From positions 31,289-95,288 of the IMG/VR virus record IMGVR_UViG_3300025593_000028: a stretch of DNA of 64,000 bases. One strand, given 5' to 3'. This document shows, piece by piece, positions 22,348 to 44,211 of this stretch. The translations under genes and the position numbers were made by a program. The stretch's first letter is position 1. Each line of letters begins with the position of its first letter. Below the pieces are notes generated by a model. The model searched no databases. It had not been told where the DNA came from and saw nothing but the letters and a program-made list of their open reading frames with translations. The DNA comes from a virus.

Positions 22348-22758
22348 CTACTCCTTTGTCGAATTGCAATGCGGAAGATGCTGTGCTACATTAGCAAATA
22401 GAAAACCACACGATGGGCAAAAATCAAGAGCAGATGGCCCCTGCCCCCAGCGGCCCATCGGCACTGGATCTTTGAAATACTGCTCTTTTCTACGGCTGGA
22501 CAGCCACGGGCTCAACAGCTCGAACACGGCACCTACCGCTACAGCTGACCTAGCTCGCCAGCGCCAAGACCAGTCATAGTTGTTGCGGTCAGACGGTGTC
22601 TTTGACCTGATGACATGTCCCACTCCCACTACATGATGAAATCTACGTACTGGCTCCTCATCGCACATGAGTAGAGCCGCAGATGAGCTGGTCCAATGCC
22701 CCTCTCCCTCAAAGAGCCCGGCTGCCCAGGCGGCCTCGGCGTCGCTTACTCCTGCCAC
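22348..22758 (-). CDS. Free-standing LAGLIDADG-type homing endonuclease (single motif)
   Basis: AAWAAGLFEGEG motif; lower GC than neighbours. Confidence 0.7.
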   Translation of the reverse strand: MAGVSDAEAAWAAGLFEGEGHWTSSSAALLMCDEEPVRRFHHVVGVGHVIRSKTPSDRNNYDWSWRWRARSAVAVGAVFELLSPWLSSRRKEQYFKDPVPMGRWGQGPSALDFCPSCGFLFANVAQHLPHCNSTKE

Positions 22759-24020
22759 GGCTCCGGCCTATGCACCCATCCTGAGATCTCTTGCGGCCAG
22801 CGCCGGTAGTCAAGTGAGCAGTTGAACTCGTACTCGCGATCTCCTATCTTCTTGCAGGGCGCACCTGGTTTCCCGTCAAGCGCACGTCCGACCCACCCTG
22901 AGATCCAGCGACCGTTCTCCACTGGAGCGCACTTGCCCACGTACTTCGACGCGTTCCCGACCGAGATGCCCTCCGGCCAGCGCCAAGCGTCCGGCAGGCC
23001 CATGAGCCTCGACAGCTCGCGGATCGTGAGGAATCGCGTCTCGCTCCAGTGCACGAACTTCGACGCGCCGGACCCTGCTACCACGTAGCCCGGCCGGTCG
23101 GGACGGATCCTAGTGGGCCACTGCCAGCCTCGCGGGTCGCGCCAGTTAGACTCGTCGTAGGCGAACCGCTGCAGCAGCGTCGGGGGCGGCGAGTCCTGCT
23201 TGAGGATCGCCTCCTTCATGTTCTCGCCCGGGAGCCAGTCCTGCTCGATCTCGCGCAGCAGCGCCCCGAGCCGCGCCGTGTCTTCGTCGATCGTCACGTG
23301 CGCGTCGACCCGGCCGTCCTCACGGCGCTTCCTCGCGGCCCACTCGCTCGGTTTCCGGCGGATCGCCTGCTCGCCCCACTTGATCGAGAGCTTCTGCAGG
23401 TCACCGATGGCTTCCTCGTACGTCACGACCTTGCGAGGCTCGGGCGCGTCGATCCCGAACGGCACCCGGTGAGCGACCCAGAAGTAACGGTGCCGGAGCT
23501 GCGCCGCCCCGACCGTCGCCCCCGACATCATCACGTGCGTCAAGTCGTAGCTCTGGCCCGACGATCGCTCTAGCTCAGAACGCAACCGAAGCATCAGGTC
23601 TCGCCCGGTCGTGTAGGCCTGCTGCACGGACTCGAAGGCCACGATCTCTGCTCCCGGGGCGCCGTCCTCGCCCGTGCAGCGACCGCCGAACTTGGCTAGG
23701 TCTCTCATGCACGAGTTGATGGGCGAGTCCGGGCCCCTGGAGTTCTCTCCCTTGGAGACGTTCATCAGCGAGAAGCCGCTGCACGGCGGGGTGCCGTGCA
23801 CGTAGCCTACGCCATCGTAGGGCTCCCACTCGCGCTCTGGGGCCTCCTGCACCTCTACTCCCTCGGTGCCCAGCAGCTCAGCGTTCTCGTAGAACGCGTC
23901 ATCACCGAAGCCGCCCGGTAGGGTCGCGCGGCCGACCACGTCAAACTTCTCCGTCTCCACGGTCCCCAGCGTCCAGTGGCCCGCGAGGCCCTGGCAGTCT
24001 ACGGCGCGGTGCTTGCTCAC
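22746..24020 (-). CDS. Divergent DNA cytosine-5 methyltransferase homologue
   Basis: GTPPCSGFS (motif IV), FESV (VI variant), QLRHRYF (VIII), RFLTIRELSRLMGLPD (IX); atypical motif I (DCQGLAG) and X (GKC). Confidence 0.8.
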   Translation of the reverse strand: MSKHRAVDCQGLAGHWTLGTVETEKFDVVGRATLPGGFGDDAFYENAELLGTEGVEVQEAPEREWEPYDGVGYVHGTPPCSGFSLMNVSKGENSRGPDSPINSCMRDLAKFGGRCTGEDGAPGAEIVAFESVQQAYTTGRDLMLRLRSELERSSGQSYDLTHVMMSGATVGAAQLRHRYFWVAHRVPFGIDAPEPRKVVTYEEAIGDLQKLSIKWGEQAIRRKPSEWAARKRREDGRVDAHVTIDEDTARLGALLREIEQDWLPGENMKEAILKQDSPPPTLLQRFAYDESNWRDPRGWQWPTRIRPDRPGYVVAGSGASKFVHWSETRFLTIRELSRLMGLPDAWRWPEGISVGNASKYVGKCAPVENGRWISGWVGRALDGKPGAPCKKIGDREYEFNCSLDYRRWPQEISGWVHRPEPWQE

Positions 24021-24172
24021 TCTACGTACGCTCCTCTGTCGGCTGCTGCAAACATCAGTTCCTCTGCCATCGCTTCTGCTAGGTCTTCACCTTCGGCCAG
24101 CGACATGCCCTCGCCGTCACAGTACATCACGAATGCGACCACCAGATCGTTCAGCGTAGGTCCGACGTTCAT
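24017..24172 (-). CDS. Small hypothetical protein
   Basis: ATGA overlap with the upstream gene; 51 aa. Confidence 0.45.
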   Translation of the reverse strand: MNVGPTLNDLVVAFVMYCDGEGMSLAEGEDLAEAMAEELMFAAADRGAYVE

Positions 24173-24528
24173 CCCTCGTAGAAGCTCCTCCGCCTCGCGG
24201 CGGTCTTGTCTTGCGCTGCTCTGCACAGCTTTGCGAAGTCCTCGTCTCCGTAGCCGCAGTTGAGTACCAGATTCCACAAGAAGAGCTGGACGTCAGCGAG
24301 CTCCTCCGCGACCATCTGACCCTCCGTGGTGCCTATCAGCGGCCCGCCGGTCTCCGCGTCGGCCCAGGGCTTCCAGCCGGGGACCTCACGAAGGGCCTCG
24401 TGCAGCTCGTCGGTAGCAGCCAGGACGTTGTCCCTGAACGAGCGGGCCAGGTCCTCCCCGGCCCGCTCGTACGGATCCTCCCCGAAGCTCTCGCGCTGGA
24501 GAGCTCGCTGTCTACCGATCAAGCCCAC
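24169..24528 (-). CDS. All-alpha dNTP pyrophosphohydrolase (MazG/dimeric dUTPase/T4 gp56 dCTPase-like)
   Basis: DELHEAL...WKPW...EELADVQLF. Confidence 0.8.
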   Translation of the reverse strand: MGLIGRQRALQRESFGEDPYERAGEDLARSFRDNVLAATDELHEALREVPGWKPWADAETGGPLIGTTEGQMVAEELADVQLFLWNLVLNCGYGDEDFAKLCRAAQDKTAARRRSFYEG

Positions 24529-25314: not shown

Positions 25315-26094
25315 CTACCCTCCTTGTGTCGCGGCCTCCGCCGCAGTGTGTGACGTATCTGATGCTACGGGTTGCGCCTCTCCCACCTCGGAATGCCTGA
25401 GCTGCCCGAAGAGCTGCCCGATGTTCGGCGCCTGCACGACTGGGCCGGGGATTTCGTTGGTCCCGTCCTTGGCTACGGCCATGGGCAGCGACGCGACCAG
25501 CATGTTGCGCTGGACGCCCTGCTCGGGCGTGTAGCTGGTGTACAGATACCCGACCGTGTCCACCGCGTACGGCAACGAGCGTGCCATCGCGCCCTGGAGC
25601 ATCGGCCTCCACTTCCCAGATTTGTCTTCTCGCGACCCGGTCGTGAACACGACGCAGCGCGTCGGATTCTCGGGCTTGATCACGAGGTCTCGGTAGTCGC
25701 GCACCAGCTTCTCGAGGTTGCGGAGCACCACGCCCCAGTCCTGCTGGTCCAGTGGATTGAGCCCGACCAGCTCGTCTATGAAGCGTTTCTGCACCTCCAT
25801 CAGCGAGTCTACCACGACCGAGAGGAACTGGTGTTGGCCGCTCTGCAGCCACCGGAACACGAGCTCCATCGTCTTGTAGTCGGGCACGATCGCGACGCAG
25901 GTCTCCCACGTGCCGTCGTACTGCGGCGGCGCGCCCTTCCTCGGGTCCCACAGGACCTTCGGCTGGCTCGGTAGGTACTTGGCGCGACCCTCAGCGTCTA
26001 GGATGAGCCTAGGCGCGGGAGACGAGTCACCGAGCCAGCTCTTTCCGGCTCCGGCTTCGCCGTGTACCAGCAGCGTCAAAGTCTGATCGTTCAA
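25315..26094 (-). CDS. AAA_24/Sak4-like ATPase (ssDNA-annealing recombinase)
   Basis: HGEAGAGKS Walker A, LDAEG, VVVDSL Walker B, QQDWG. Confidence 0.8.
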   Translation of the reverse strand: MNDQTLTLLVHGEAGAGKSWLGDSSPAPRLILDAEGRAKYLPSQPKVLWDPRKGAPPQYDGTWETCVAIVPDYKTMELVFRWLQSGQHQFLSVVVDSLMEVQKRFIDELVGLNPLDQQDWGVVLRNLEKLVRDYRDLVIKPENPTRCVVFTTGSREDKSGKWRPMLQGAMARSLPYAVDTVGYLYTSYTPEQGVQRNMLVASLPMAVAKDGTNEIPGPVVQAPNIGQLFGQLRHSEVGEAQPVASDTSHTAAEAATQGG

Positions 26095-26159
26095 CGGCCC
26101 TCCTCCGTTCGGTCCATCAGAGGAACTGTACCAGGCATGCTCGGAGGGGGCCGGAGGAG

Positions 26160-26750
26160 TCAGAAGCCGCGCTGCCTCCTGCGGATCTTCTCTGCCAGCT
26201 TCGGTTCAGACACGTGAGTGTAGATCATAGTGGTGTCTACGCTCTTGTGGCCGAGCAGGTTCTGGATCTCGCGGATGTTGAGGTCTCCCTCGCTCATCAG
26301 CTCGGTCGCGTACGTGTGCCTGAGCATGTGCGGGTGGCACGGGCCTTCGATGCCGGCCCGCCGCCCGTAGCGCTGCATCATCTGCCAGCAGTAGTGCGGG
26401 GACACGGGGCTCCCCTTCAGCGTCACGAAGAGAATCTTGCTTCCGTCCGCGTATTTCTCTCGCTCTCGCTTCCAGCGTTCTACGAGCTCGAGCGTGCCGT
26501 CCTCGATCTGGACGTAGCGCTCCACCTTGTTCTTGGCGATGGCCGCGCGGATGTGGATGCGCCGCTCGCGCACCTGGACGTCGCGGACGTTCAGGCGGCA
26601 GAGCTCGCCCACTCGCAGCCCTGCGCGGTACATCAGCTCGAGCATCGCGCGGTTCCTGATGCCGGTCGGCCGCCGCATGTTCGGCACCGCCAGCAGAGCA
26701 CGCACGTCCTCGTCCGAGAAGATCTTCGGAAGCTCTCGTCCCTTCTTCAT
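26160..26750 (-). CDS. Short tyrosine recombinase (catalytic domain only; XerD/FimB-like)
   Basis: GLRVGE, AKNKVER, HPHMLRH, LLGH...TTMIY catalytic residues; about 196 aa. Confidence 0.9.
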   Translation of the reverse strand: MKKGRELPKIFSDEDVRALLAVPNMRRPTGIRNRAMLELMYRAGLRVGELCRLNVRDVQVRERRIHIRAAIAKNKVERYVQIEDGTLELVERWKREREKYADGSKILFVTLKGSPVSPHYCWQMMQRYGRRAGIEGPCHPHMLRHTYATELMSEGDLNIREIQNLLGHKSVDTTMIYTHVSEPKLAEKIRRRQRGF

Positions 26751-26930
26751 ATAAGCAATTTCTCCTCTAAGCCAGTCGCAGACTGAGATTCGTACGTGGG
26801 GTACCCGCATATAGATCATACCCGCAGACGAATGTTGCTGCTATAGAGGCCGCTCTCACCTGAGCAGACGAAGATTCCTCATATGCAGGCCGCAGTAGAT
26901 CCTTCGCGGCACATGATAGTGCTTATATGA
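26747..26930. repeat. Putative recombination site: 11-bp inverted repeats enclosing three GCAGAC-core direct repeats
   Basis: TCATATAAGCA (26747-26757) / TGCTTATATGA (26920-26930); GCAGACTGAGATT 26778, GCAGACGAATGTT 26824, GCAGACGAAGATT 26864. Confidence 0.6.
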
Positions 26931-26956
26931 CGCCTAGAATCCGGCGTCTAGCGGAG

Positions 26957-27031
26957 TGCCCGCCCCGGGACTCGAACCCGGAACCTCTCCCTTCTGAGGG
27001 GAGCGCCTCTGCCGGATTGGGCTAGACGGGC
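26957..27031 (-). tRNA. tRNA-Leu(CAG), short variable loop
   Basis: Cloverleaf; anticodon arm CTCCC-CTCAGAA-GGGAG; GTTCGAGTC T-loop; A73. Confidence 0.85.
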
Positions 27032-27058
27032 AAGGAGATCCTACGGATCGCGCCCCAG

Positions 27059-27139
27059 TGCGCGGGGACGGAATCGAACCGCCACAGCCAGAGACGCCTG
27101 GTTTACAGCCAGGGGGGCTCGCCCATGCCCAGCCCGCGC
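27059..27139 (-). tRNA. tRNA-Tyr(GTA)
   Basis: CCTGG-CTGTAAA-CCAGG; long variable arm; GTTCGATTC; acceptor stem extended by flanking inverted repeat. Confidence 0.8.
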
Positions 27140-27156
27140 ACTGGGGCGCGGAAAGA

Positions 27157-27390
27157 CTATATCGGCAGCTCGGGCGTGTCGCTGGTGTCCACGCCAGAGC
27201 CGCCGCATTTCTTGCAGCAGCGGTACATGGAGTAGAGCCAGTTGCCAGTGCCGCGGCATTCCTTGCAGAGCTTTCTGCCGGCAGCCCAGTTGCCCCATGC
27301 GACTTTCATGTCCGTCCACTCGCCCACAAGCGGTGGCGCACCGATCTCGCGTCGCTCGTCTTCGTCCACAGGCTTCGAGACGTCGATCAT
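27157..27390 (-). CDS. DnaJ-type zinc-finger protein
   Basis: CKECRGTG and CKKCGGSG. Confidence 0.6.
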   Translation of the reverse strand: MIDVSKPVDEDERREIGAPPLVGEWTDMKVAWGNWAAGRKLCKECRGTGNWLYSMYRCCKKCGGSGVDTSDTPELPI

Positions 27391-27734
27391 CCCCATCGGC
27401 CTGCCGCCTCTGGGAATAGGAACCGAACCTTCTTCCCGTTCTTTTCCGCGTACTTGATCTCGCGCTCCGTAGAACTCCCCACATATCCCCCAACGTTGAC
27501 GACTAGAATCTCGTCGGCTAGGTCGATCTTGCGGAAATGGACTTCGTCGAGTCCCTGCTTCCCATCGGTCGACTCGTCTCCGTCTGAGCACAGGAACTTC
27601 GATCCGGGGGGATCATCTTGGTGCCCGTACACGCTGAGCGGGATACAAACGTTGCCCATGAAGGCCTCATGCATCTCGGCCATTCGATGCGCCTCTGGAA
27701 AGCGAGTGCTGCCGCAAAGCGTAACTACGGTCAT
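27387..27734 (-). CDS. Nucleoside 2-deoxyribosyltransferase-superfamily protein
   Basis: TLCGSTRF...KIDLADEILVVN.GGYVGSST.REI.YA. Confidence 0.65.
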   Translation of the reverse strand: MTVVTLCGSTRFPEAHRMAEMHEAFMGNVCIPLSVYGHQDDPPGSKFLCSDGDESTDGKQGLDEVHFRKIDLADEILVVNVGGYVGSSTEREIKYAEKNGKKVRFLFPEAAGRWG

Positions 27735-27904
27735 TCTGACTCCTTCTCCCTCAGTCTTTCTAGGTTCTCGAGCACGGCTTCTCGCGCGGCCTTTGCGGCC
27801 ATGTCTTCTACGATCTGCCTCAGCAGTGCATCGTCCACGTCGTAGAGCAGCTGCTTACTGATCGGTATCGTGATTTCCGGTATGCGTATTGATACGTGCT
27901 CCAC
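27731..27904 (-). CDS. Small hypothetical protein (57 aa, below the ORF-track cutoff)
   Basis: GTG...TGA fills the gap exactly, with ATGA coupling. Confidence 0.5.
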   Translation of the reverse strand: MEHVSIRIPEITIPISKQLLYDVDDALLRQIVEDMAAKAAREAVLENLERLREKESE

Positions 27905-27906
27905 CG

Positions 27907-28875
27907 CTACTTCGCTACCTCCACAGGTAGCCCTGCAGCGCGTCGGTAGCGCGCAAGCGGGTCGCCGACTTCGAAGAAGTCCTGGATCATCGGCTCGGGG
28001 TCCTGCCCGTCATCGAGCCGGCCCGGCAGGCAGACGTCGCGGAACTCGCATTCCCACCGGCAGTCTCGGGTGGGGTTCGGCGGGCACAGCTCGTGATGGC
28101 TCGCGCCGCCGTCGAGCTCGGCGCGGGTCGCGATGATCTCGGTCGCGATCCTGTGAACGTGCTTCCAGTGGTTGCGCAGCTCCTCCACGGTGTGCGTGAC
28201 CTCGTGCCGTTCGTAGAACGGCGGCTTGGCTCGAGCAGTGCGTTTGACCTTCCGCAGCATGTTGTAGAGGATGAACTCGGCCCTGGTGCCCTCGCCCTCG
28301 TGCTCGAGCAGGTGCAGGTACTCGACCAGGTGCTCGGTCAGTAGCTGCGTGTCGACCTGCAGCGTCGGGAGCGCTTCTTTGAAGGATCCACCCACGGTCT
28401 TGTGCTCGAGCGCGCCGCGCTTTCCGTCTGAGACGCGCTCGACGCGCGCGTCGATCTTCGAGAGCAGCGTGGCTTCGACCGTCCCCGACCCGTCGTCCGC
28501 GACGACCAGCGGAGCCTCCATCTCGGACTCGGGCTCGACGACGCGTATGTCTGAGTCCTCGCCCTCCTCCTCCAGCCACTGGAGGTAGCCCTCCAGCATA
28601 GCACGGCAGAGGTCTGCTTCCTTGCGGATGTCGTCCTCCATCGCTGGGTGCTCCGAGACGTCCTCCTCGACTCCGGCCTCGAAGTGCGCCATCGGGTCGG
28701 GCCGCTCGAGCCCGGGTACGTAGTAGTGCTGCAGCGTGTCGTGCATCCGCGTACCGATCGACAGTGGATTGTCGAATTCGATCCCGCGCTTCTGCAGCCC
28801 GCGGTACGTGCCGAGGTACCACTTGCGCCGGCACCTGCGCCACTGCTTCGCCTCGCTGTTGGTGAGGCGGATCAC
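27907..28875 (-). CDS. Cas4/RecB-like PD-(D/E)xK exonuclease
   Basis: CRRKW, GTRMH, KID...EHKT, Q, C-terminal C..C.....C cluster. Confidence 0.85.
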   Translation of the reverse strand: MIRLTNSEAKQWRRCRRKWYLGTYRGLQKRGIEFDNPLSIGTRMHDTLQHYYVPGLERPDPMAHFEAGVEEDVSEHPAMEDDIRKEADLCRAMLEGYLQWLEEEGEDSDIRVVEPESEMEAPLVVADDGSGTVEATLLSKIDARVERVSDGKRGALEHKTVGGSFKEALPTLQVDTQLLTEHLVEYLHLLEHEGEGTRAEFILYNMLRKVKRTARAKPPFYERHEVTHTVEELRNHWKHVHRIATEIIATRAELDGGASHHELCPPNPTRDCRWECEFRDVCLPGRLDDGQDPEPMIQDFFEVGDPLARYRRAAGLPVEVAK

Positions 28876-32753: not shown

Positions 32754-34497
32754 ACAGCGCCCCCCAGCGCTTAGTCGTGTCTACGTCCACGGTGAGCGGG
32801 ACCTTGAAGTGCTCGGTCTCCGGCATCACCTCTTCGATCGTGGCCACGGCTTCGTCTAGGCTGTCGTCCGGCACGCTGAACACGACCTCGTCGTGGATCG
32901 GCAGCAGGATCTGCGGGCCCAGCCCCGCCTGCGCGAGCTCGATGATCTTCAGCTTGAGCACCTCTCCGGCCGTGCCCTGGTCGCGGTAGTTGACCCCCTT
33001 GTAGGCTTCGTCCTTGGGGACGAAGAGCCTGCGGCCGAACTCCGTGTGAACCTCGCCCCACCCCTTGTCGCCGCCCCGCGACTCGTGTACTTCCTGCGAC
33101 ACCTGTTCTTGGAACGCGGCGACGCGAGGGAACAGCGCGTCGTACCGCTCGAGCACCGAGGCGGCCTCGCTTTCGCTCAGCCCAGCCGAGTACGCGAACT
33201 TGGTCACGCCGGCGCCGTAGATCTTGGCGTACCCTGACGTCTTCGCGACGTTCCGCTGCTCGTACACAACTTCCTCGAGGCTCTGCAGGCCGAAGATTTC
33301 CTGCGCAGTCCACTTGTGCAGGTCTTCGCCGGAGCAGAACCGAGAGATCATGTTCTCCTCGTCCGCCATGTGAGCGAGGAGCCTGAGCTCGATCCCAGAG
33401 AAGTCGGCCGAGATCAGGGTCTCACCCTCGTCCGCGATGAAAGCGTCCCTGCCGACCGAGGACTTGGGCAGGGTCTGCAGCGCGGGTTCGGTGATCGACA
33501 TCCTCCCGGTCTTCTGCGCGCCGAGCACACGAACCGACGGGTGCACGCGGTCGTCTGCCTCGATCTTCAGCAGCTTGTCGAAGTAGCTGCCTTTCAGCTT
33601 GCTGCACTCCCGGTAGCGACGCATGTCGTGGCACTCCGGGATCTTTCCCTCCCAGTACTCGAGCACCTCGTCGTCCGCTGCGAGGTGGCCCTTCTCGGTG
33701 CGTTTGGTCAGCGTCGCGCCACGCGACTGCAGGAACTCGACGACCTGCTTCGGCGCGTTCGGGTTGCACGGCAGCTTCGGCGACAGTGCTGCGATCTCGG
33801 CCTCCAGCTCGAGCGACGTCTTACGGCAGAAATCTACGTCCACCCGCATCCCGCGCAGCTCTGCGTCGCGCAGGGCGTGGATCGAGCCGAGCTCGATGTC
33901 GTAGGAGCGCCGGTACCTGTCGCGCACTTTGGGCCAGAGCTTCTCCGCGATCCTGCACGTGAGCACCGGGTCCAGCGCACCGTACTGCCAGTACGGCGGG
34001 AAGTCCAGCGGCACCGTGTCCCAGTCCCAGCCCTGCTTCTTCATGGCCTCGTGCAGCACGACCTGTCCGGCCAGCGCCTTCTTGTCTACGAGTCGAGATG
34101 CCACGGGCTTCAGGCCCACCGGCAGGTGGGAGGTCACGAGCTGCGCCATGACCATCGTGTCCTCGGCGAGGTGCTGCGGCACGGTCACGCCGTCGCGCTT
34201 CAGGAACGCCGAATCGAAGATCAGGTTGTGCGCGACCAGCGGCGACGAGTCGTACGCCTCGATCAGCTCTTTGAACGCGCCGTAGAAGCTGTTAGGTCCC
34301 TCGCACGGGATCGCCCAGCCGTGGTCTCTGTCGCCGAGCTGCGCGAGCCGCACCCTGTCTCGGCCGAGGTTCACCCCAGTGGTCTCGAGGTCGAACCCGA
34401 GCCAGTCCCTCGACCGGCCCAGCCACTCGCGTAGATCCAGCAGCTCGTCGGTGGACTCGACGAGCGTCAGGCCCACGCGCTCAAGTCCCTCAGACAC
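32746..34497 (-). CDS. polA: Family A DNA polymerase (3'-5' exonuclease + polymerase)
   Basis: DLETTG, HNLIFD, TGRMS..P.LQ, ADFSGIELR, AKTSGYAKIYG, IHDE. Confidence 0.93.
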   Translation of the reverse strand: MSEGLERVGLTLVESTDELLDLREWLGRSRDWLGFDLETTGVNLGRDRVRLAQLGDRDHGWAIPCEGPNSFYGAFKELIEAYDSSPLVAHNLIFDSAFLKRDGVTVPQHLAEDTMVMAQLVTSHLPVGLKPVASRLVDKKALAGQVVLHEAMKKQGWDWDTVPLDFPPYWQYGALDPVLTCRIAEKLWPKVRDRYRRSYDIELGSIHALRDAELRGMRVDVDFCRKTSLELEAEIAALSPKLPCNPNAPKQVVEFLQSRGATLTKRTEKGHLAADDEVLEYWEGKIPECHDMRRYRECSKLKGSYFDKLLKIEADDRVHPSVRVLGAQKTGRMSITEPALQTLPKSSVGRDAFIADEGETLISADFSGIELRLLAHMADEENMISRFCSGEDLHKWTAQEIFGLQSLEEVVYEQRNVAKTSGYAKIYGAGVTKFAYSAGLSESEAASVLERYDALFPRVAAFQEQVSQEVHESRGGDKGWGEVHTEFGRRLFVPKDEAYKGVNYRDQGTAGEVLKLKIIELAQAGLGPQILLPIHDEVVFSVPDDSLDEAVATIEEVMPETEHFKVPLTVDVDTTKRWGALYA

Positions 34498-34939
34498 CCC
34501 CGTCGCGCTCCCAGGCCTTCAGCAGCTCCTTGTCCTTCGGCTTGAAGGAGCGGTCTCCCCACGCCACGAAACGGTATGCTTCCACGGTGTACTCGCCGCA
34601 GCCCGGTAGCTCGCCGACCCACTCGTGGGGCGGTCGGATCCCGAACGAGACGACGCATTCCCATTCGTGGAACTTGTTGCTGACGATGTTGAGCGTGTCT
34701 GCCCGGCGAGACTGGAGCCCGCACGGCGAGATCACAGATTCAACCTCGGCGCGGTCTGCTAGGGCGAGCTCCGCCGGTTCTGGCCAGCGCGAGAACAGCT
34801 CGTCCAAGACTGGGCGCACCTGCGAGCCGGAGGTCTGCTGGCACATGACGGTCGAGACGACCACGCGCCACGGCATAAAGGTCCGGTCCTCTCCCGCGTA
34901 CTCCTCCTGGATCAGCAGCCCGTCGCGCACGGCGTGCAC
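34490..34939 (-). CDS. MBD4-like HhH DNA glycosylase (no Fe-S cluster)
   Basis: LIQE...PWRVVVSTVMCQQTSG...RWP...PCGL...RRA...LPGCGEY...YR...PKDKEL parallels the MBD4 catalytic domain; start approximate. Confidence 0.75.
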   Translation of the reverse strand: MHAVRDGLLIQEEYAGEDRTFMPWRVVVSTVMCQQTSGSQVRPVLDELFSRWPEPAELALADRAEVESVISPCGLQSRRADTLNIVSNKFHEWECVVSFGIRPPHEWVGELPGCGEYTVEAYRFVAWGDRSFKPKDKELLKAWERDGGV

Positions 34940-35892
34940 CACCCCACCTTCCCGCTTTCTGCGTAGATGTCGGGCCAGTGGTCCTGATCGTCTGGGAGCA
35001 CGTAGCGGCAACTCGGGCAGATCCTGCCCCCCGACTGCGTACCGTCTAGCACGTCCTCGTACCAACGATGCGCGCTCGGCACTACGTCTGGCTCAGAGGA
35101 GATGCCGGTGATCGCCGCGAAGCTCTGCTGCACCCACCTCCAGCGGTCCAGCGCGACCTCTTCACGCAGCCGCTCGCCCACAGGGAGCGGATACGCGGGC
35201 GGCTGCTCGAACTCCTCGTCGCCGCCGGCCGACCACGTGGAGATGTCGTCCCTGTCCACGTAGGCGTGCATGCTGTAGCAGTGGTGCGAGTAGCGGCCCG
35301 GCTCGACGCCGAGCGCGAACGCCAGCGCGCGCTGCGCGGCCGTGAACTGCATCCAGTCGTACGGCGTCCCCCACACCAGGTCCTGCGACCTCATCGTCGT
35401 GAAGGCCTCTAGCTTGTCGTCGCGGATCTGGTAGAAGAGGTTGAGCGTGCACGGCACGTCCTTAGACGGCCTCTCGAGCTCGCGGCCGAGCCAGATCGTG
35501 ACGCCGGCCTGCCTAGAGTCCCGGTCGGAGCAGAGCTGCGACACCACGCGGGGCCACTGCAGCGCTACCCTGGGCCCGTACGCACCGAGCAGCCTGTGGC
35601 CCGCTGGGCCCTCCACGAACATCGCGAAGTTCTTTGCGCAGTTGACGAGTTGGTCCGCGTCCGAGTACCCGCCCACGAGGTTGGTCGCCTCGGCCGCTCC
35701 GATCTTCGCTACCAGCTTCCTGCCGACCCCGGTGGGCGCCGGGCGAGTCGGATCCTCTAGTACGGTCGTCACTGCGGGGAGCTCGAGCGTCCTGTGCCCC
35801 CTCGGCCGCACCTCGCGGCCCCGCTCGAGCAGAGCGTCTCGCACGCGTAGGTAGAGCTCGGACGCGCTGCCTCCCTGGAACACCTCAGCCAT
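34912..35892 (-). CDS. Thymidylate-synthase homologue, probable dCMP hydroxymethylase/methylase
   Basis: GAYGPR, DSRQA, DVPCT, MRSQDLVWGTPYD (Asp at the Asn specificity position), SMHAY; C-terminal CxxC...CxxC. Confidence 0.85.
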   Translation of the reverse strand: MAEVFQGGSASELYLRVRDALLERGREVRPRGHRTLELPAVTTVLEDPTRPAPTGVGRKLVAKIGAAEATNLVGGYSDADQLVNCAKNFAMFVEGPAGHRLLGAYGPRVALQWPRVVSQLCSDRDSRQAGVTIWLGRELERPSKDVPCTLNLFYQIRDDKLEAFTTMRSQDLVWGTPYDWMQFTAAQRALAFALGVEPGRYSHHCYSMHAYVDRDDISTWSAGGDEEFEQPPAYPLPVGERLREEVALDRWRWVQQSFAAITGISSEPDVVPSAHRWYEDVLDGTQSGGRICPSCRYVLPDDQDHWPDIYAESGKVGWCTPCATGC

Positions 35893-36500
35893 CAGCGCAG
35901 CAGCCCCGCGAACGCGGGGTCCTCTAGATCGTCTGCGACGACGCAGTACTCTGGGGTAGCCGAGCAGTTCTTCTCCTCGTTGATCGCCGCCGTGGCCACG
36001 TCGTCTGCGTGCACCGTCCCCATGTCGAACTCCATTGTCCTCGCGGCCTGCTGCTCGAGGAACCTGAACTGCTGCCGGAACATCGCGTCGGCCGCCGGCA
36101 CGAGCGCGGTCGGGAGAGGCTCCGGCGGTCGAGCCTCTACGAACTCGGCGTGGATCTCGTCTAGCGGCCGTTCGCACATGACGAACAGCGCTCCCTTCGA
36201 CGCGTACGCTGCGACTAGCAGCGCGTACTCGCCGGGGGTCAGAGCCGGGGTGCGCGAGAAGAGCGTGGGCCAGACCGACTCGCCCACGAACGACCTGTCG
36301 AGCACGACGTTCCTGCTCGCATTCGGGACATACTTGAGGATCGGCTCGAGGTACTCGTCCACGGCGCGCGGGCTCTCCGGGCGTTCAGCGTGGATCACCC
36401 GCGTGCCACGGCCGTTGAGCCGGCTCAGGGTCTGGGGCATCTTGTCGGCCAGCGTCGACTTGCCGGTCCGGTCTACTCCCTCGATGACGATGAGTGCCAC
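35892..36500 (-). CDS. dNMP (thymidylate-type) kinase
   Basis: IEGVDRTGKST P-loop; VLDRS motif; coupled to the TS homologue. Confidence 0.85.
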   Translation of the reverse strand: MALIVIEGVDRTGKSTLADKMPQTLSRLNGRGTRVIHAERPESPRAVDEYLEPILKYVPNASRNVVLDRSFVGESVWPTLFSRTPALTPGEYALLVAAYASKGALFVMCERPLDEIHAEFVEARPPEPLPTALVPAADAMFRQQFRFLEQQAARTMEFDMGTVHADDVATAAINEEKNCSATPEYCVVADDLEDPAFAGLLR

Positions 36501-36653
36501 AGATCCCTCCCCGTTGCTTCCTTCCGGGAGACATCGTATCAGGTCTACCGAGAAGATGAGAGCGGCGCTGGGGCGTCGATGGAGGGGGGTCAACCTGACG
36601 CGGAAAGGAGGTGACGTCAGGCGACGCGAGCGCCCCGCGCCTGCTCACTTAGA

Positions 36654-37556
36654 TCATACGCCCCGTCGGTACGGATCGTCGTCCGGGTCTTCGGCGTCCT
36701 CGAACGCCTGGAACACCGCCTGCGCCTTGGCCTCCTCCTCGTCCATGCCCGCATCCTCGTTCTCCCACTTGAGCCGGTAGCGGTTGATCGTGACGAGTGC
36801 TGCCTTCTGCTCTTCCTGCACGACGCGGCTGCTCACGCCGAGCGCCTCGGCCACGTCGTTCCTGAGCATGGACGGCCCTTCGAAGCCGAAGCGCATCTCC
36901 ACGACGCGTCGCTGCCGCTCAGACAGTTGGTCCATCGCGGCACGCAACCACGGGTACGTGTCGATCGCGAGCTGCGCTGGGTCGACCGCGTTCGGGTCCG
37001 CGATCGTCGTGTGCCTCCCGTCGCGTCCGTCCTCGTCGTCGCCGACCGACGCGTCGAGCGACACGCTGGCGCGCGGGCCATCGACCGCCTCGACCGCTTC
37101 GTCGACGTCTATCTCCAGGGCCTCTGCCGCCTCCTCCAGAGTCTCGTCGTGCTCGTCCATGCGCTTCTTGAGCTTCCTGCGCGCTCGCTGGAGCTGCCCG
37201 GGCACCTTGATGAGGTTGCCGTCCGGGCCGGCGACGTAGCGCTGCAGGTGCTGTTTGATCCACCACGTCGCGTAGGTGGAGAATTTGAAGCCCTTCTCCG
37301 GATCGAACTTTTCGAGTGCTTTCATCAGCCCGAGCGTGCCCTCCTGCACCAGGTCCTCCATGCTGTGGCCCATGCGCGCGTACCGCTTCGCGATCGAGAT
37401 CACGAGCTTGACGTTGTGCTCGATCATGAGTCGGTGCGCCTCTCTGTCGCCGGCCTGCGCGGCCCGCGCTAGCTCTTTCTCGCGGTCCCCGCCGAGCACC
37501 TCCCGCGTGCCGATCTCCCTGATGAAGGACCTGAACTCATCCCCGTGCTCGCTCAC
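36654..37556 (-). CDS. RNA polymerase sigma factor, sigma70 family (RpoD/RpoS-like regions 1.2-4)
   Basis: HNVKLVISIAKRY, DLVQEG..GL..A.EKFDPEKGFKFSTYATWWIKQ, SLD, region-4 HTH. Confidence 0.92.
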   Translation of the reverse strand: MSEHGDEFRSFIREIGTREVLGGDREKELARAAQAGDREAHRLMIEHNVKLVISIAKRYARMGHSMEDLVQEGTLGLMKALEKFDPEKGFKFSTYATWWIKQHLQRYVAGPDGNLIKVPGQLQRARRKLKKRMDEHDETLEEAAEALEIDVDEAVEAVDGPRASVSLDASVGDDEDGRDGRHTTIADPNAVDPAQLAIDTYPWLRAAMDQLSERQRRVVEMRFGFEGPSMLRNDVAEALGVSSRVVQEEQKAALVTINRYRLKWENEDAGMDEEEAKAQAVFQAFEDAEDPDDDPYRRGV

Positions 37557-38530
37557 CAATCTCCCTTCGCGTTTGTCAGCAGTACGTCCAAGTCTAGCCC
37601 GCAAGACCGGAGGTCGTCCCCGTCGGGCAGCGCCACCCGCCTCGCGTCTACGCCCGCCTCGCGGAGCCGCGCCGCCCACTTCTTCGACGACTCGCGGCCC
37701 GCGTCGTCCTCGTCCATGCCTAGATATACTACCTCGTACCTAGCGAGCTCTTCGACCCAATCGTCGGCCGGCGCAGCGCCTGCTCCAGATGGCAGTGCCA
37801 GCACGTCGGTCGGCAGGTACAGCGGCCGCGCGTCGGCCCACACGGCGTCGGACTCGCCCTCGCACAGCAGCACAGCGCGAGCACCGCCGACCCTCCAGCA
37901 CCCGTACAGGTGCTTCAGCGGGCCGAACGTCTTCCAAGACCTGTCCCTGTAGCGCACCTTGACAGCAGACAGCGACCCGTCCGGGGCACGGTGCGGGATC
38001 ACCACGTTCGCGGCCTCGTCGAGGCCCCAGCCCCAGTCCAGCAGGTGCTCGTCCCACGCCGTGCGCACGGCTTGATCGTCGTGGTCGCCCACGAACCCAT
38101 ACGCGTAGGACAGCAAGCCGACGTCCGAGTGCCCGCGGGCCCTCTCCCGGCACTCGGCGATCCTCGCGTCCCACGCAGCGTCTGGTACTAGCGCCGCTCT
38201 CCGCTTCGGGGGGTCCAGCTTGAGGTCGTCCGGCAGCTCCTCGGCCAGCGCGCTGAGCTCGAGCAGCGCCTCGTAGAAGGCCACCCCCCGCACCCGTCGC
38301 ACTAGCTCTATGACGTCTACCGCTGCCCCACAGGCTCTACAAAAGGCCCAGGGGAAGCCGTCTTCACCTGGGCCCATCAACTCGAAGTTTGGATTGTTCT
38401 TGTCGTCGTGGAACGGGCAGAGCGCCCGGCCGTCCTGGCCGAACTTGACGCCCACCTCCGCTGCCGCGACCTCCATCGGTACTCGCGACTTGATTTCGTC
38501 CGGCTCGTAGACGTACCGGAGCTCGGTCAC
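37553..38530 (-). CDS. DNA primase (CHC2 zinc finger + TOPRIM)
   Basis: CPFHDD...FCRACG; CEGESDA; MDEDDAG. Confidence 0.88.
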   Translation of the reverse strand: MTELRYVYEPDEIKSRVPMEVAAAEVGVKFGQDGRALCPFHDDKNNPNFELMGPGEDGFPWAFCRACGAAVDVIELVRRVRGVAFYEALLELSALAEELPDDLKLDPPKRRAALVPDAAWDARIAECRERARGHSDVGLLSYAYGFVGDHDDQAVRTAWDEHLLDWGWGLDEAANVVIPHRAPDGSLSAVKVRYRDRSWKTFGPLKHLYGCWRVGGARAVLLCEGESDAVWADARPLYLPTDVLALPSGAGAAPADDWVEELARYEVVYLGMDEDDAGRESSKKWAARLREAGVDARRVALPDGDDLRSCGLDLDVLLTNAKGDW

Positions 38531-40880: not shown

Positions 40881-42218
40881 CTAGTCGTCTGCTGGTACGC
40901 CGACGGGGGCCATCGCTACGCCGACCGGGCGCAGCTTCTCGAGCACCTCGATCGTGTCGCCCTGCGACTCGAGCACGTCCGCGAGCCGCTTGTACGCGCC
41001 TGGCGCCTCCTCCGCTCCTGAGCCGCGGAGCTCTACCCCTGCCACCTGCGTGACCTGCGCGTGCTCCGCGTTCCAGTCGATCTCGCCCTCCGCCATCTGT
41101 ACCCAGCGCTTGCTGAGCGTGGGGTGGCCACAGCTCGGGCACTTGCCGTCCTCGGGCTTGTGCGTGTGCGGTGGCTGGAACCAGTCGCAGTCTCGGTTGT
41201 TGCACGACCACCGCTTCTTCTGCTTGCCAGCGGCCCGCGACCTGCTCATCGCGCGGCCCGCGCCGTGCACCGTGGAGAACAGAGCGCGCTGCTGCAGCTC
41301 CGTCTCCTCCACAGCAGTACCGACGTCGAACGAACCGCGGCGCGCGCCGCAGAGGATCACGCTCTCCTCTCCCATCGTCGATCCGACGAACCCCTCCTGG
41401 CCCGGGAAGGCGGGGGTGCAGCCCTTGCGCACTACCCAGAAGGTCTCGCCCCGGTGCTCCTCCTCCCACGCGAAGTTGTGGTGGTTGTGGACCTCGTGCT
41501 CCGCCTCGGTCCCGAGGATCTCCAGCACCTCGGATACGACGACGTCGCGGCCCGCGTACGCGTACTCGCCGGCGAGCGACATCGCCGAGAGGTACGACTG
41601 GCCCTCCTCGGAGTCGGTCCTGAACGTGACCGGAGACCCCATGAGGTCCTCCTTGCACTCGCCCTTCGTGCCGAAGGGCTTGCCGCGCGAGACCCACAGG
41701 AACCCGTTCGCGGTCGTGTGCCCGAAGCCACGCGAACCGAAGTGGACGCCGATCCAGAGCTTGCCGTCGTCACCCTCGAAGAGGTCCACGTAGTGGTTGC
41801 CGCCACCTACGCTGCCGAGCTGGTGCGCTGCCTTGTCGAGCAGCGACCGCTGCGGGCTGAAGTCCGCCTCCCTGATCTTGTCGAGCACCGGGTGGTCCGC
41901 GTCGAGGCCGCCTTCACCCGGGCCGAACGGGATCCGATCGTAGATCTCGTCCATGACCCCGGGCACGTCGACGTCCTCGACGAGGAGCGGGGTGCGCACG
42001 GCCTTGTTCCCGCACCCGATGTCGTAGCCGACGCCGGACACGGAGATCCGCTCGCGGTACGCGATGGCCATGCCGACGGGCTGGGCGTACCCGAGGTGGT
42101 TGTCGGCGCACAGCACGCCGATCGACCCCTGCTGGGCGTCGAGACAGTTACGCGCCTGCTCGAGCGTCTTCTCGTCTGCCTCGCCGAAGACGGTCAGGTC
42201 GTAGTAGCGTCCACTCAC
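40881..42218 (-). CDS. rtcB: RtcB RNA ligase with zinc-ribbon insertion
   Basis: DNHLGY, VGYDIGCG, GGGNHY, HFGSRG, HNHHN, HGAGR, EEAPGAYK. Confidence 0.92.
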   Translation of the reverse strand: MSGRYYDLTVFGEADEKTLEQARNCLDAQQGSIGVLCADNHLGYAQPVGMAIAYRERISVSGVGYDIGCGNKAVRTPLLVEDVDVPGVMDEIYDRIPFGPGEGGLDADHPVLDKIREADFSPQRSLLDKAAHQLGSVGGGNHYVDLFEGDDGKLWIGVHFGSRGFGHTTANGFLWVSRGKPFGTKGECKEDLMGSPVTFRTDSEEGQSYLSAMSLAGEYAYAGRDVVVSEVLEILGTEAEHEVHNHHNFAWEEEHRGETFWVVRKGCTPAFPGQEGFVGSTMGEESVILCGARRGSFDVGTAVEETELQQRALFSTVHGAGRAMSRSRAAGKQKKRWSCNNRDCDWFQPPHTHKPEDGKCPSCGHPTLSKRWVQMAEGEIDWNAEHAQVTQVAGVELRGSGAEEAPGAYKRLADVLESQGDTIEVLEKLRPVGVAMAPVGVPADD

Positions 42219-42749: not shown

Positions 42750-43211
42750 CTAGTCGAGGACTACGTCGTAGTCCACGCCGTGTTGATCGAAACTCCTCTG
42801 CAGCCTCCCGTAGTCCTCCGCGCCCATGCACGCGTAGACCAGCTCTAGGTAGATCCTCGCCATCCACGGGTCGTGGCTCTGCGAGCCGAACCGCGCGTCT
42901 GCCAGCACGTGCGCTACCTCGTGACACAGGATCAGCGGCCTCATGTGGTCGCTCATCATGTCGCAGACCCCGGCGCCCTTCACGGCGTCGAAGCCGCCCA
43001 CGCTACCCCCCTGGCCGTCTGGATGCTCGAAGACCTCCACGCGCAGCACGTGCCTGAAATCTCCCTCCCACCTCCGATAGCGGTCGCGCATGCGGTCCAC
43101 GAAGTCCTGCGCCTCGGCTAGGAGCATCTTGTGCCCCCAAGCCGGAGCGCCATCGCCGGGGAACTCGATCCGGCGCTCGGCCTCGTAGAGGCTATCCTGC
43201 TGGCACGGCAT
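42750..43211 (-). CDS. TIGR04338/Rv0185-like HExxH metallohydrolase
   Basis: QQDSLYEAE N-terminus; LCHEVAH...SHDP.MARIYLELV. Confidence 0.7.
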   Translation of the reverse strand: MPCQQDSLYEAERRIEFPGDGAPAWGHKMLLAEAQDFVDRMRDRYRRWEGDFRHVLRVEVFEHPDGQGGSVGGFDAVKGAGVCDMMSDHMRPLILCHEVAHVLADARFGSQSHDPWMARIYLELVYACMGAEDYGRLQRSFDQHGVDYDVVLD

Positions 43212-43887
43212 TTTCTAGGTCCTTCCCCTTGAGCTTGCACACGAGCCGGCCCCCGTTCCTGCTCAGCAGGCCGAGCGGGGCCTGCGCTACTAGGCCCTCT
43301 GGCTCGACGTCGCCGCCCCAGCGAGACTCGAAGCCGAGTTCCACGAGCTTGTGCATCCCGTCTAGCGTGCCGTAGTCGACGGTCGGCACGGACTCGATGC
43401 CGAGCGACTCGGCGATGCCGTGGACGTCGGCGGGCTTGAGCCACCAGCGGCCGATGCGGACGTCGAACAGCACGAAGTCCGCGCCGTCTGCTTTGTAGTT
43501 TCCCCCGCCCTTCTGGATCTTCGCTCCGTAGCCCTCGCCGTAGAGGGTGACCAGCGCTCGGCCGTCCTCGTCGTCGCCGGCATCGGGGAACACCTGCTCG
43601 AAGAGCTGCTCGCCGGGGTCGCCGCCGAAGAGCTCCTGCAGCCGCTCGACGAGGTGCATGGGCATCTGGGCGCGGTCGGTCTTGCCGCCGAAGCGCACCT
43701 TCTGCCCGTCCCACCCCACGCGCACGTTCGTGCCGTCGACCTTCTCGGTGAACCGCCAGGGCAGGTCGGCCAGCATCTCGAGCTCCGGGCTCGAGAAGGA
43801 CCCGACCAGCAGCCTGTGCGGCTTGTCCGACTCGCGCTTCCACAGCGTCGGGATCTTGTGGTACTTGCCGTGCATGCCCTCGCTCAC
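43192..43887 (-). CDS. ATP-dependent RNA ligase (Rnl2-like)
   Basis: EKVDGTN, YGEGYG, FVLFD, EGLV, KLK nucleotidyltransferase motifs. Confidence 0.85.
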   Translation of the reverse strand: MSEGMHGKYHKIPTLWKRESDKPHRLLVGSFSSPELEMLADLPWRFTEKVDGTNVRVGWDGQKVRFGGKTDRAQMPMHLVERLQELFGGDPGEQLFEQVFPDAGDDEDGRALVTLYGEGYGAKIQKGGGNYKADGADFVLFDVRIGRWWLKPADVHGIAESLGIESVPTVDYGTLDGMHKLVELGFESRWGGDVEPEGLVAQAPLGLLSRNGGRLVCKLKGKDLENAVPAG

Positions 43888-44211
43888 GTCAGCCCCTCCT
43901 CGTTGGCGTCGTAGCACCTGATCATCTCGCCGTCGTGCCGTACCAAGATCGACTTCCCGCCCTCGCCTTCGTACGCGGTCACGATCGCCTGGCCGAGCCC
44001 GGACACGATCAGTTCTCGCAGCTCTGTCTGCAGTTCTTCTACGGTCACTCGAACGCCTTCGCTCCCTTGCCGCGGCAGCTGCGCCGCGGGTTGTTCGGGT
44101 CCGCGTTCCTCTTGCGGCCCCTCGTGTGCGTCACCTGCCTGCCGTCCCTAGCGCAGTACGAGCACGGGCCGCGGCTCCCCCGCCGCTTTTTCGACGCCCT
44201 CGGGCCGGGCA

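Follow-up and report, generated by a model that had tools for sequence, protein, structure and literature searches.

A virus-only family of C5-methyltransferase-like proteins with an altered cofactor pocket is co-inherited with a putative dCMP hydroxymethylase

In this work, we describe a methyltransferase-like gene encoded on the minus strand of a 64,000-nucleotide stretch of viral DNA, hereafter the window, which covers bases 31289-95288 of the IMG/VR virus record IMGVR_UViG_3300025593_000028 (95,288 bp, with direct terminal repeats). Its product belongs to a family, here called ESV/GK, in which the residues of covalent catalysis on cytosine are strictly kept, while those that would hold the adenosine of S-adenosylmethionine (SAM) are not, and whose gene is gained and lost together with a thymidylate synthase (TS) homologue bearing the signature of a dCMP hydroxymethylase. 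Our preferred reading, to which we assign a probability of roughly 0.4, is that the enzyme acts at the DNA level in a 5-hydroxymethylcytosine (5hmC) pathway, using covalent catalysis at C6 without canonical methyl transfer from SAM. A shade less probable is the bolder claim that the family would be the first natural class of enzymes to use the C5-methyltransferase machinery on 5hmC DNA without SAM, turning 5hmC or phosphorylated 5hmC into a new hypermodified cytosine by way of an exocyclic methylene.

C5-methyltransferases are textbook SAM enzymes. Reportedly, the Klimasauskas laboratory found that without SAM they can replace the 5hmC hydroxyl by a thiol, and can attach formaldehyde or take it off again. 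The genes on which our argument rests are the following:

22746..24020, minus strand: methyltransferase-like enzyme of the ESV/GK family, 424 aa, with Cys80, Glu130, Arg176 and Arg178, and with Lys363 at the position of the motif X Asn
24017..24172, minus strand: 51-aa open reading frame (ORF) between the pyrophosphatase and methyltransferase-like genes
24169..24528, minus strand: all-alpha nucleoside triphosphate (NTP) pyrophosphatase of the MazG / dimeric dUTPase / dCTPase superfamily, 119 aa, candidate dCTPase
34912..35940, minus strand: TS homologue with a dCMP-hydroxymethylase signature (D-V-P-C, then RSQD...D)
35892..36593, minus strand: P-loop nucleotide kinase-like gene, candidate 5hm-dCMP kinase (PPK2, 9e-5; Thymidylate_kin, 0.0099)

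The enzyme combines a C5-methyltransferase fold with altered motifs

The ORF at 22746-24020 has a G+C fraction at third codon positions of 0.86, a bias typical of a real gene (the window as a whole has a G+C content of about 65%). Its AlphaFold2 model, built with 68 homologues, reached a mean predicted local distance difference test (pLDDT) score of 94.2 and has a class I methyltransferase fold with a target-recognition domain. The best Foldseek matches of the model were DNMT1, MET1 and M.HaeIII, with E values from 1e-17 to 1e-13, and the family profile matched M.HaeIII at 1e-24. The catalytic Pro-Cys of motif IV (Cys80, within PPCSGFS), the Glu of motif VI (Glu130) and the RxR of motif VIII (RHR, residues 176-178) are all present. 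The model and these residues together predict, with confidence, a C5-cytosine-methyltransferase fold whose catalytic residues are intact.

The canonical FxGxG of motif I, the acidic residue of motif II, the ENV of motif VI and the GN of motif X were not found in the enzyme. The sequence-only reading of this DNA had reported DCQGLAG, ESV and GKC at motifs I, VI and X beside an intact PC and RxR, and these variants are indeed encoded by the ORF (residues 8-14, 130-132 and 362-364, respectively). In the profile alignment with M.HaeIII, Gln10 takes the position of the motif I Phe, Leu12 that of the first loop Gly, Thr33 that of the motif II Glu and Lys363 that of the motif X Asn. The register of motif I was set by the secondary structure of the model, with a strand at residues 4-9 and a helix starting at residue 15. 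The match to PF00145 is restricted to residues 154-368 (42.1 bits against a cut-off of 22; profile positions 133-313), and the NCBIfam dcm model (TIGR00675) gave 18.3 bits against a cut-off of 100.65.

The altered positions are shared by a large family found only in viruses

An exhaustive HMMER search returned 135 cluster representatives with E values below 1e-30. Conservation was counted over 150 representatives aligned to the family model, with denominators that vary by position. Cys80 is kept in 130/130 representatives, Glu130 in 144/144, Arg178 in 149/149 and Arg176 in 148/149. The Asn of ENV is replaced by Ser131 in 139 of 144 representatives and by Cys in the other five; a motif scan of all 150 found no ENV at all. 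Ser81 stands for the Gln of PCQ in 117 of 131, giving PCS, and a Lys occupies the position of HhaI Asn304 in 143 of 146 (Lys363 here). The position of Gln10, which corresponds to HhaI Phe18, holds Q, H, E, Y, M or N and never Phe, and that of Leu12 is F, L or Y in every representative. At Thr33, the position of the ribose-binding motif II Glu, a Glu is found in 88 of 129.

Judged by these alignments, the motif deviations are not chance but belong to a whole family, which counts at least 150 cluster representatives. The residues of covalent catalysis are under strict selection, those that would hold the adenosine are not, and the space around C5 is predicted to be enlarged and positively charged across the family. 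Compared with M.HaeIII, M.HhaI and DNMT1 (PF00145), the family shares the fold, a DNMT1/HaeIII-like target-recognition region, the PC cysteine, the motif VI Glu, the motif VIII RxR and motif IX. It differs from them in motif I (Phe to Gln, first Gly to Leu or Phe), in the loss of a conserved motif II Glu, in the changes from PCQ to PCS, ENV to ESV and GN to GK, in its score under the dcm cut-off, in its distribution and in the hydroxymethylase-type gene that always accompanies it.

Genomes representing 185,579 species of bacteria and archaea contained a single match to the family, and its contig bears the same replication module as the phages. The family is confined to viruses in the collections searched. 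Annotated phage records hold it in 15 cases (13 Gordonia, 1 Actinomycetia and 1 Micrococcus), public records annotate the genes as methyltransferases, and we found no description of the family in the literature.

The strongest rival to our reading is that the enzyme is an ordinary, if divergent, SAM-dependent C5-cytosine methyltransferase that acts on residual cytosine or on a defined motif, as an anti-restriction backup. The full catalytic set and fold, the PF00145 score above cut-off, the public annotation and the motif II Glu of 88/129 members all agree with this. We nevertheless consider it unlikely: four positions around SAM and C5 are altered family-wide, the adenine-stacking Phe is never seen, the first loop Gly has given way to a bulky residue, and in this protein Thr replaces the ribose-binding Glu. 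The score far under the dcm cut-off and the absence from cellular genomes argue in the same direction, as does the strict co-inheritance, described below, with a gene expected to remove the substrate of such a methyltransferase.

As a separate observation, one family member of 752 aa (P0002) carries an intein with Hint, LAGLIDADG and splicing domains. The alignment to the family model picks up again precisely at the catalytic PPC cysteine, and the intein thus appears to sit at that residue. Such a placement usually marks a strongly constrained functional site.

A putative dCMP hydroxymethylase is the obligatory companion of the family

The TS homologue of the window had its best match in the CMP hydroxymethylase MilA (5e-13); among phage proteins, it lies closest to the SPO1-type pyrimidine hydroxymethylases, nearer to that clade and to MilA than to T4 gp42. 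Its start codon is uncertain, as the open frame extends to 36177. The stretch D-V-P-C-T corresponds to L143D with the catalytic Cys, and RSQD...D to a kept D169 and N177D. A published signature for dCMP hydroxymethylases comprises N177D, L143D/E, a retained D169 and the catalytic Cys (PMC13326640). By the criteria of that study, the signature marks the protein as a probable dCMP hydroxymethylase, and not as a thymidylate synthase or a 5-hydroxy-dCMP synthase (PMC13326640). The premise of the sequence-only reading, that C5 is already substituted at the nucleotide level, therefore gains a candidate gene. We refer to homologues of this kind as TS(Asp). The signature D-x-P-C...RS.D...G...D was present in 32/32 co-occurring TS sequences inspected, including that of Gordonia phage Sixama.

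Next, we asked how the two genes are distributed. A TS homologue was found in 43 of 50 records that hold the family, and in 22/22 of those at least 90% complete. As a control, 80 relatives were collected through a shared PD-(D/E)XK nuclease, and 25 new whole records among them were searched for both genes. Five had both the family and TS(Asp), 18 had neither and two were discordant; the latter are fragments, 14-16% complete, that end short of the usual place of the missing gene. The near-complete control genomes held both genes (G061) or neither (G057, G058 and G060). Taken over near-complete genomes, family and TS(Asp) occur together in 24/24, and 3/3 near-complete relatives without one are without both.

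A quick maximum-likelihood tree of the nuclease, in which L189 is labelled absent owing to a flank artefact, requires eight changes in the presence of the family, at least five of them forced by well-supported branches. Hence, the family and TS(Asp) were gained or lost together several times. The sequence-only reading had named a distribution of homologues independent of TS-like genes as the outcome that would speak against it; instead, both genes were present or both absent in every near-complete genome examined, with several independent joint gains or losses. TS(Asp) is an obligatory companion of the family.

The protein gp179 of Sixama (L005:6757-7605), annotated as thymidylate synthase, has Asp at both the L143 and the N177 positions and is more likely a dCMP hydroxymethylase. 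Genes equivalent to gp179 are encoded by Forza, Boopy, BlueNGold, Mareelih and GMA2. By similarity to the Sixama protein, the TS of related Gordonia phages is probably likewise a dCMP hydroxymethylase. Directly upstream of the TS homologue of the window lies the kinase-like gene, and a gene annotated as thymidylate kinase takes the equivalent position in Sixama.

The enzyme is encoded in an operon with a candidate dCTPase

According to the sequence-only reading, one small ORF separates the gene from an all-alpha dNTPase of the WKPW type. The small ORF is the 51-aa frame, and the second identification was borne out by profiles and a model. The product of 24169-24528 (minus strand) matched phrog_173 at 9e-8. 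A phmmer search of PDB with this MazG-like protein alone gave nothing useful, and a family profile (25 homologues) was needed; it matched dimeric dUTPases at 3e-10 (1w2y) and DCTPP1 at 2.5e-4. The AlphaFold2 model has four helices (pLDDT 94.5), and its top Foldseek matches, although weak (E value 7.5e-3, template-modelling score about 0.65), were the mouse and human dCTPases. Glu41, Glu44, Trp52-Lys53-x-Trp55, Glu76 and Asp79 are invariant. Having both the four-helix all-alpha fold and the ExxE...ExxD metal-binding motifs, the product is an all-alpha NTP pyrophosphatase. It is a candidate dCTPase but could equally be a dUTPase, because no trimeric dUTPase was found on searching the whole phage genome.

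The ATG of the 51-aa ORF overlaps the stop codon of the pyrophosphatase (ATGA), and its own stop overlaps the GTG start of the methyltransferase-like gene (GTGA). From these overlaps, the three genes are predicted to be translationally coupled. The pyrophosphatase, the small ORF and the enzyme form a trio with overlapping stop and start codons in Gordonia phage Sixama and in Micrococcus phage Kurnik as well. The 51-aa product has no detectable similarity to that of the equally placed 50-aa ORF of Sixama, and a small ORF is missing where the neighbouring genes abut; we rejected it as a conserved component.

In IMG/VR, 111 contigs encode the family, and linkage was counted in 80 of them. In 55/80 loci, the family gene is preceded on its own strand, at a distance of at most 400 nt, by a MazG-like gene, and a further 10 loci have one within 6.6 kb. 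Because a single replication module is common to most of the loci, these adjacency counts are not independent.

The place beside a candidate dCTPase, together with the fact that the gene never occurs without TS(Asp), could also be accounted for by an anti-host enzyme acting on unmodified host cytosine. In this scenario, a SAM-free attack with Lys-assisted protonation of C5 would lead to C-to-U deamination or to protein-DNA adducts, while 5hmC would protect the phage. SAM-starved C5-methyltransferases do deaminate cytosine, and in this genome a gene of the HhH-GPD glycosylase family adjoins the TS gene. The glycosylase, however, had tblastn matches in the flanks of just 2/80 related loci, which places it outside the conserved core, and the scenario leaves unexplained both the enlarged C5 pocket and the fusions to DNA kinase or methyltransferase domains described below. 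We regard it as the least probable of the explanations considered, and as remote. The gene in question is the following:

34490-35065, minus strand: HhH-GPD glycosylase-family gene, between the TS homologue and DNA polymerase A

The family is repeatedly linked to enzymes that act on hydroxymethyl groups

Outside the window, the genome carries a cassette of a kind known from thymidine hypermodification. It encodes an amino-acid:DNA transferase (ADDT; PF18724, 28.7 bits), a dual-specificity phosphatase, a 129-aa ORF and a 5-hydroxymethyl-dU DNA kinase (HMUDK; PF18748, 32.9 bits). In four related contigs, the genes for ADDT, phosphatase and HMUDK come immediately before those for the MazG-like protein and the enzyme, all in one co-directional cluster:

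G000 25499-28012 (= L116:8500-11013), plus strand: ADDT/HMUDK cassette, 3.3-5.8 kb before the window start
L022:43-3710: co-directional ADDT-phosphatase-HMUDK-MazG-enzyme cluster
L023:6594-11176: the same arrangement
L026:674-5870: the same arrangement
L081:4411-7760: the same arrangement

No HMUDK_hel and no dCMP deaminase were found on searching the whole phage genome. Since the hydroxymethylase is of the Asp type and no dCMP deaminase is encoded, the cassette suggests an amino-acid hypermodification built on 5hmC and not on 5-hydroxymethyluracil (5hmU). The cassette was carried by just 8/50 relatives. We therefore rejected a requirement of the enzyme for it; unlike TS(Asp), the cassette is an optional addition. 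Deamination of 5hmC to 5hmU in phage DNA, feeding HMUDK and ADDT, was also considered and rejected as mutagenic for the phage.

Protein fusions link the family to the same chemistry. In one protein (P0027), the family domain is fused to a 5-hmdU DNA kinase domain, and seven other family proteins have FkbM- or UbiG-like methyltransferase domains as fusion partners. No partner domain resembles CmoA.

The sequence-only reading had seen no glycosyltransferase gene in the window. For Glycos_transf_2, this holds for the whole phage genome, in which none was found, but it does not hold for relatives: glycosyltransferase genes lie upstream of the trio in the same operon, adjoining it in Kurnik (L120:6793-8309) and about 1.1 kb away in Sixama (L003:7937-9187). 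They are candidate 5hmC glycosyltransferases. Given these genes and the kinase/ADDT cassette of the present genome, the methyltransferase-like enzyme is not necessarily the sole second-step modifier.

The fusion and operon partners all plausibly act on a hydroxyl and would hence stand downstream of an enzyme that makes 5hmC, which is compatible with a DNA-level cytosine 5-hydroxymethylase. Such an enzyme would convert residual cytosine to 5hmC with a one-carbon donor other than SAM (formaldehyde or methylene-tetrahydrofolate), and would thereby proofread the nucleotide-level pathway. The degraded SAM pocket fits this proposal, and C5-methyltransferases add formaldehyde to cytosine in vitro. 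The activity would, however, be redundant, as a dCMP hydroxymethylase always accompanies the enzyme; the sequence shows no recognisable donor-binding motif, and free formaldehyde is scarce in cells. We consider this explanation quite improbable.

Comparison with known modification systems

A functionally analogous change at the motif X position is known from SpCmoX, a DNA cytosine C5-carboxymethyltransferase from Synechococcus phage S-B43 (PDB 8YF3; PMC12783734). A cationic side chain at the position of HhaI Asn304 best supports the use of carboxy-SAM (Cx-SAM) (PMC12783734; PMC13288465), and in the engineered M.MpeI N374K such a side chain favours this cofactor (PMC13288465). SpCmoX resembles the family in being phage-encoded, in PCS and in having a cationic residue, Arg350, where the family has Lys363. 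In an hhalign comparison, residues 65-372 aligned, with Lys363 on Arg350; the N-terminal 64 residues, with motifs I-III, did not. SpCmoX keeps Phe25, Glu47, Phe48, Asp69 and ENV, which the family does not, and matches PF00145 over its full length at 180 bits, while the family enzyme matches in the C-terminal half only. In place of the SPPC motif and Arg350 that characterise CmoX, the latter binding the carboxylate of Cx-SAM, this protein has TPPC (most of the family has NPPC) and Lys. A survey of CmoX counted 4257 CmoA genes for 5615 CmoX sequences, mostly on the same contig (PMC12783734). CmoA (TIGR00740) was found neither in this genome nor in 50 relatives, and the partners of the family are TS(Asp) and the MazG-like gene instead.

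A CmoX-like carboxymethyltransferase, in which Lys363 would play the role of Arg350 or of N374K and bind Cx-SAM, is supported by the aligned cationic residue, by its known effect on cofactor use (PMC12783734, PMC13288465) and by the shared PCS. The missing CmoA, the canonical residues, ENV and full-length PF00145 match of SpCmoX that the family does not show, and the expected replacement of the target cytosine by 5hmC make it very improbable, more so than the DNA-level hydroxymethylase.

The phage T4 pathway to 5hmC consists of the dCTPase gp56, the dCMP hydroxymethylase gp42, the kinase gp1 and glucosyltransferases. The present genome resembles it in the TS homologue with N177D and L143D, in the all-alpha NTP pyrophosphatase and in the kinase-like gene beside the TS. 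It differs in that the T4 pathway has no partner with a methyltransferase fold.

The likeness to thymidine hypermodification (PMC5889632, PMC8989533) consists of the HMUDK- and ADDT-family genes of this genome, of the operon that some relatives share between these genes and the enzyme, and of the fusion of the enzyme to an HMUDK domain in one relative. Clade 2 aGPT-Pplases employ a C6 thiolate and an exocyclic methylene (PMC8989533). Thymidine hypermodification, however, starts at 5hmU made by an Asn-type hydroxymethylase, whereas the hydroxymethylase here is of the Asp, or cytosine, type.

Proposed role of the enzyme

We now return to the 5hmC-directed role, which we propose because of the pocket changes: a wider C5 space, a Lys at motif X and a degraded adenosine site. 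The candidate dCTPase, the TS homologue and the kinase-like gene would supply 5hm-dCTP, and the phage DNA would carry 5hmC for C. The enzyme would flip the base in the DNA, and Cys80 would attack C6, as in all C5-methyltransferases. The changes of Gln to Ser in PCQ and of Asn to Ser in ENV would widen the space at C5. Lys takes the place of the motif X Asn beside the transferred group, and the adenosine-binding positions of the SAM pocket are degraded. The substrate may be 5hmC or phosphorylated 5hmC, with Lys363 contacting the 5-substituent. The C6 adduct would then drive exchange or editing of the 5-substituent through an exocyclic methylene intermediate, in place of methyl transfer from SAM. 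A second-step cytosine modifier of this kind, using another cofactor or hypermodifying 5hmC, is what the sequence-only reading had put forward, and we still infer such non-SAM or 5hmC-directed chemistry.

Several points weigh against this proposal. The family conserves Gly14, Asn46 and the Rossmann half as a whole, so the sequence is compatible with SAM binding. The motif II Glu is kept in 68% of members, including all eight fusions with a methyltransferase-type or unassigned C-terminal part, and unusual versions of motif I are tolerated by some known methyltransferases. That the phage DNA carries 5hmC is predicted from signature residues of the TS homologue, the exchange reaction presupposes a nucleophile or co-substrate, and the shared replication module limits the weight of gene adjacency. 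The main weakness is that the glycosyltransferases, or the kinase with the amino-acid:DNA transferase, which relatives encode in the same operons, would need the same hydroxyl, and an exchange of it would compete with them.

Genomic neighbourhood

The genes described here sit in a minus-strand arm for replication and nucleotide metabolism. The other features considered are the following:

minus-strand arm of the window: SNF2 helicase, DNA polymerase A and primase
minus-strand arm of the window: PD-(D/E)XK nuclease and Sak4-like ATPase
22348..22758, minus strand: homing-endonuclease-like ORF (phrog_5046, 3.7e-12), with a LAGLIDADG-like GLFEGEG stretch
36654-37679: sigma-70 family gene
40881-42218, minus strand: RtcB gene, with an RNA ligase family gene close by at 43192-43917 (minus strand), a possible tRNA-repair pair

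The homing-endonuclease-like ORF shares 13 nt with the methyltransferase-like gene at the latter's 3' end and is probably a selfish insert that serves as context only. A similar ORF also lies 3' of the methyltransferase-like gene in L015 and L017. The only data sets listed as containing the stretch are contig sets of two wetland metagenomes, with neither raw reads nor RNA among them, and a megablast search of the locus against phage records gave no match.

Significance

SAM-free reactions of C5-methyltransferases on 5hmC have to date been known from the laboratory alone, as curiosities, and it took until 2025 for carboxymethylation by CmoX to be recognised as a natural reaction. A large virus-only family with a kept covalent core, a rebuilt pocket and strict co-inheritance with a putative dCMP hydroxymethylase points to an undescribed step of cytosine modification in phages. 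If true, this step would give cytosine a counterpart to the hypermodification pathways of thymidine, would bear on restriction evasion and could give an enzymatic handle for 5hmC chemistry and sequencing. Cultured phages with the same gene trio, namely Gordonia phages Sixama, Forza and GMA2 and Micrococcus phage Kurnik, make the proposal directly testable. In Sixama, and by similarity probably in the related Gordonia phages, the 'thymidylate synthase' is likely mis-annotated, and the genes annotated as 'methyltransferase' in these phages may not encode methyltransferases.

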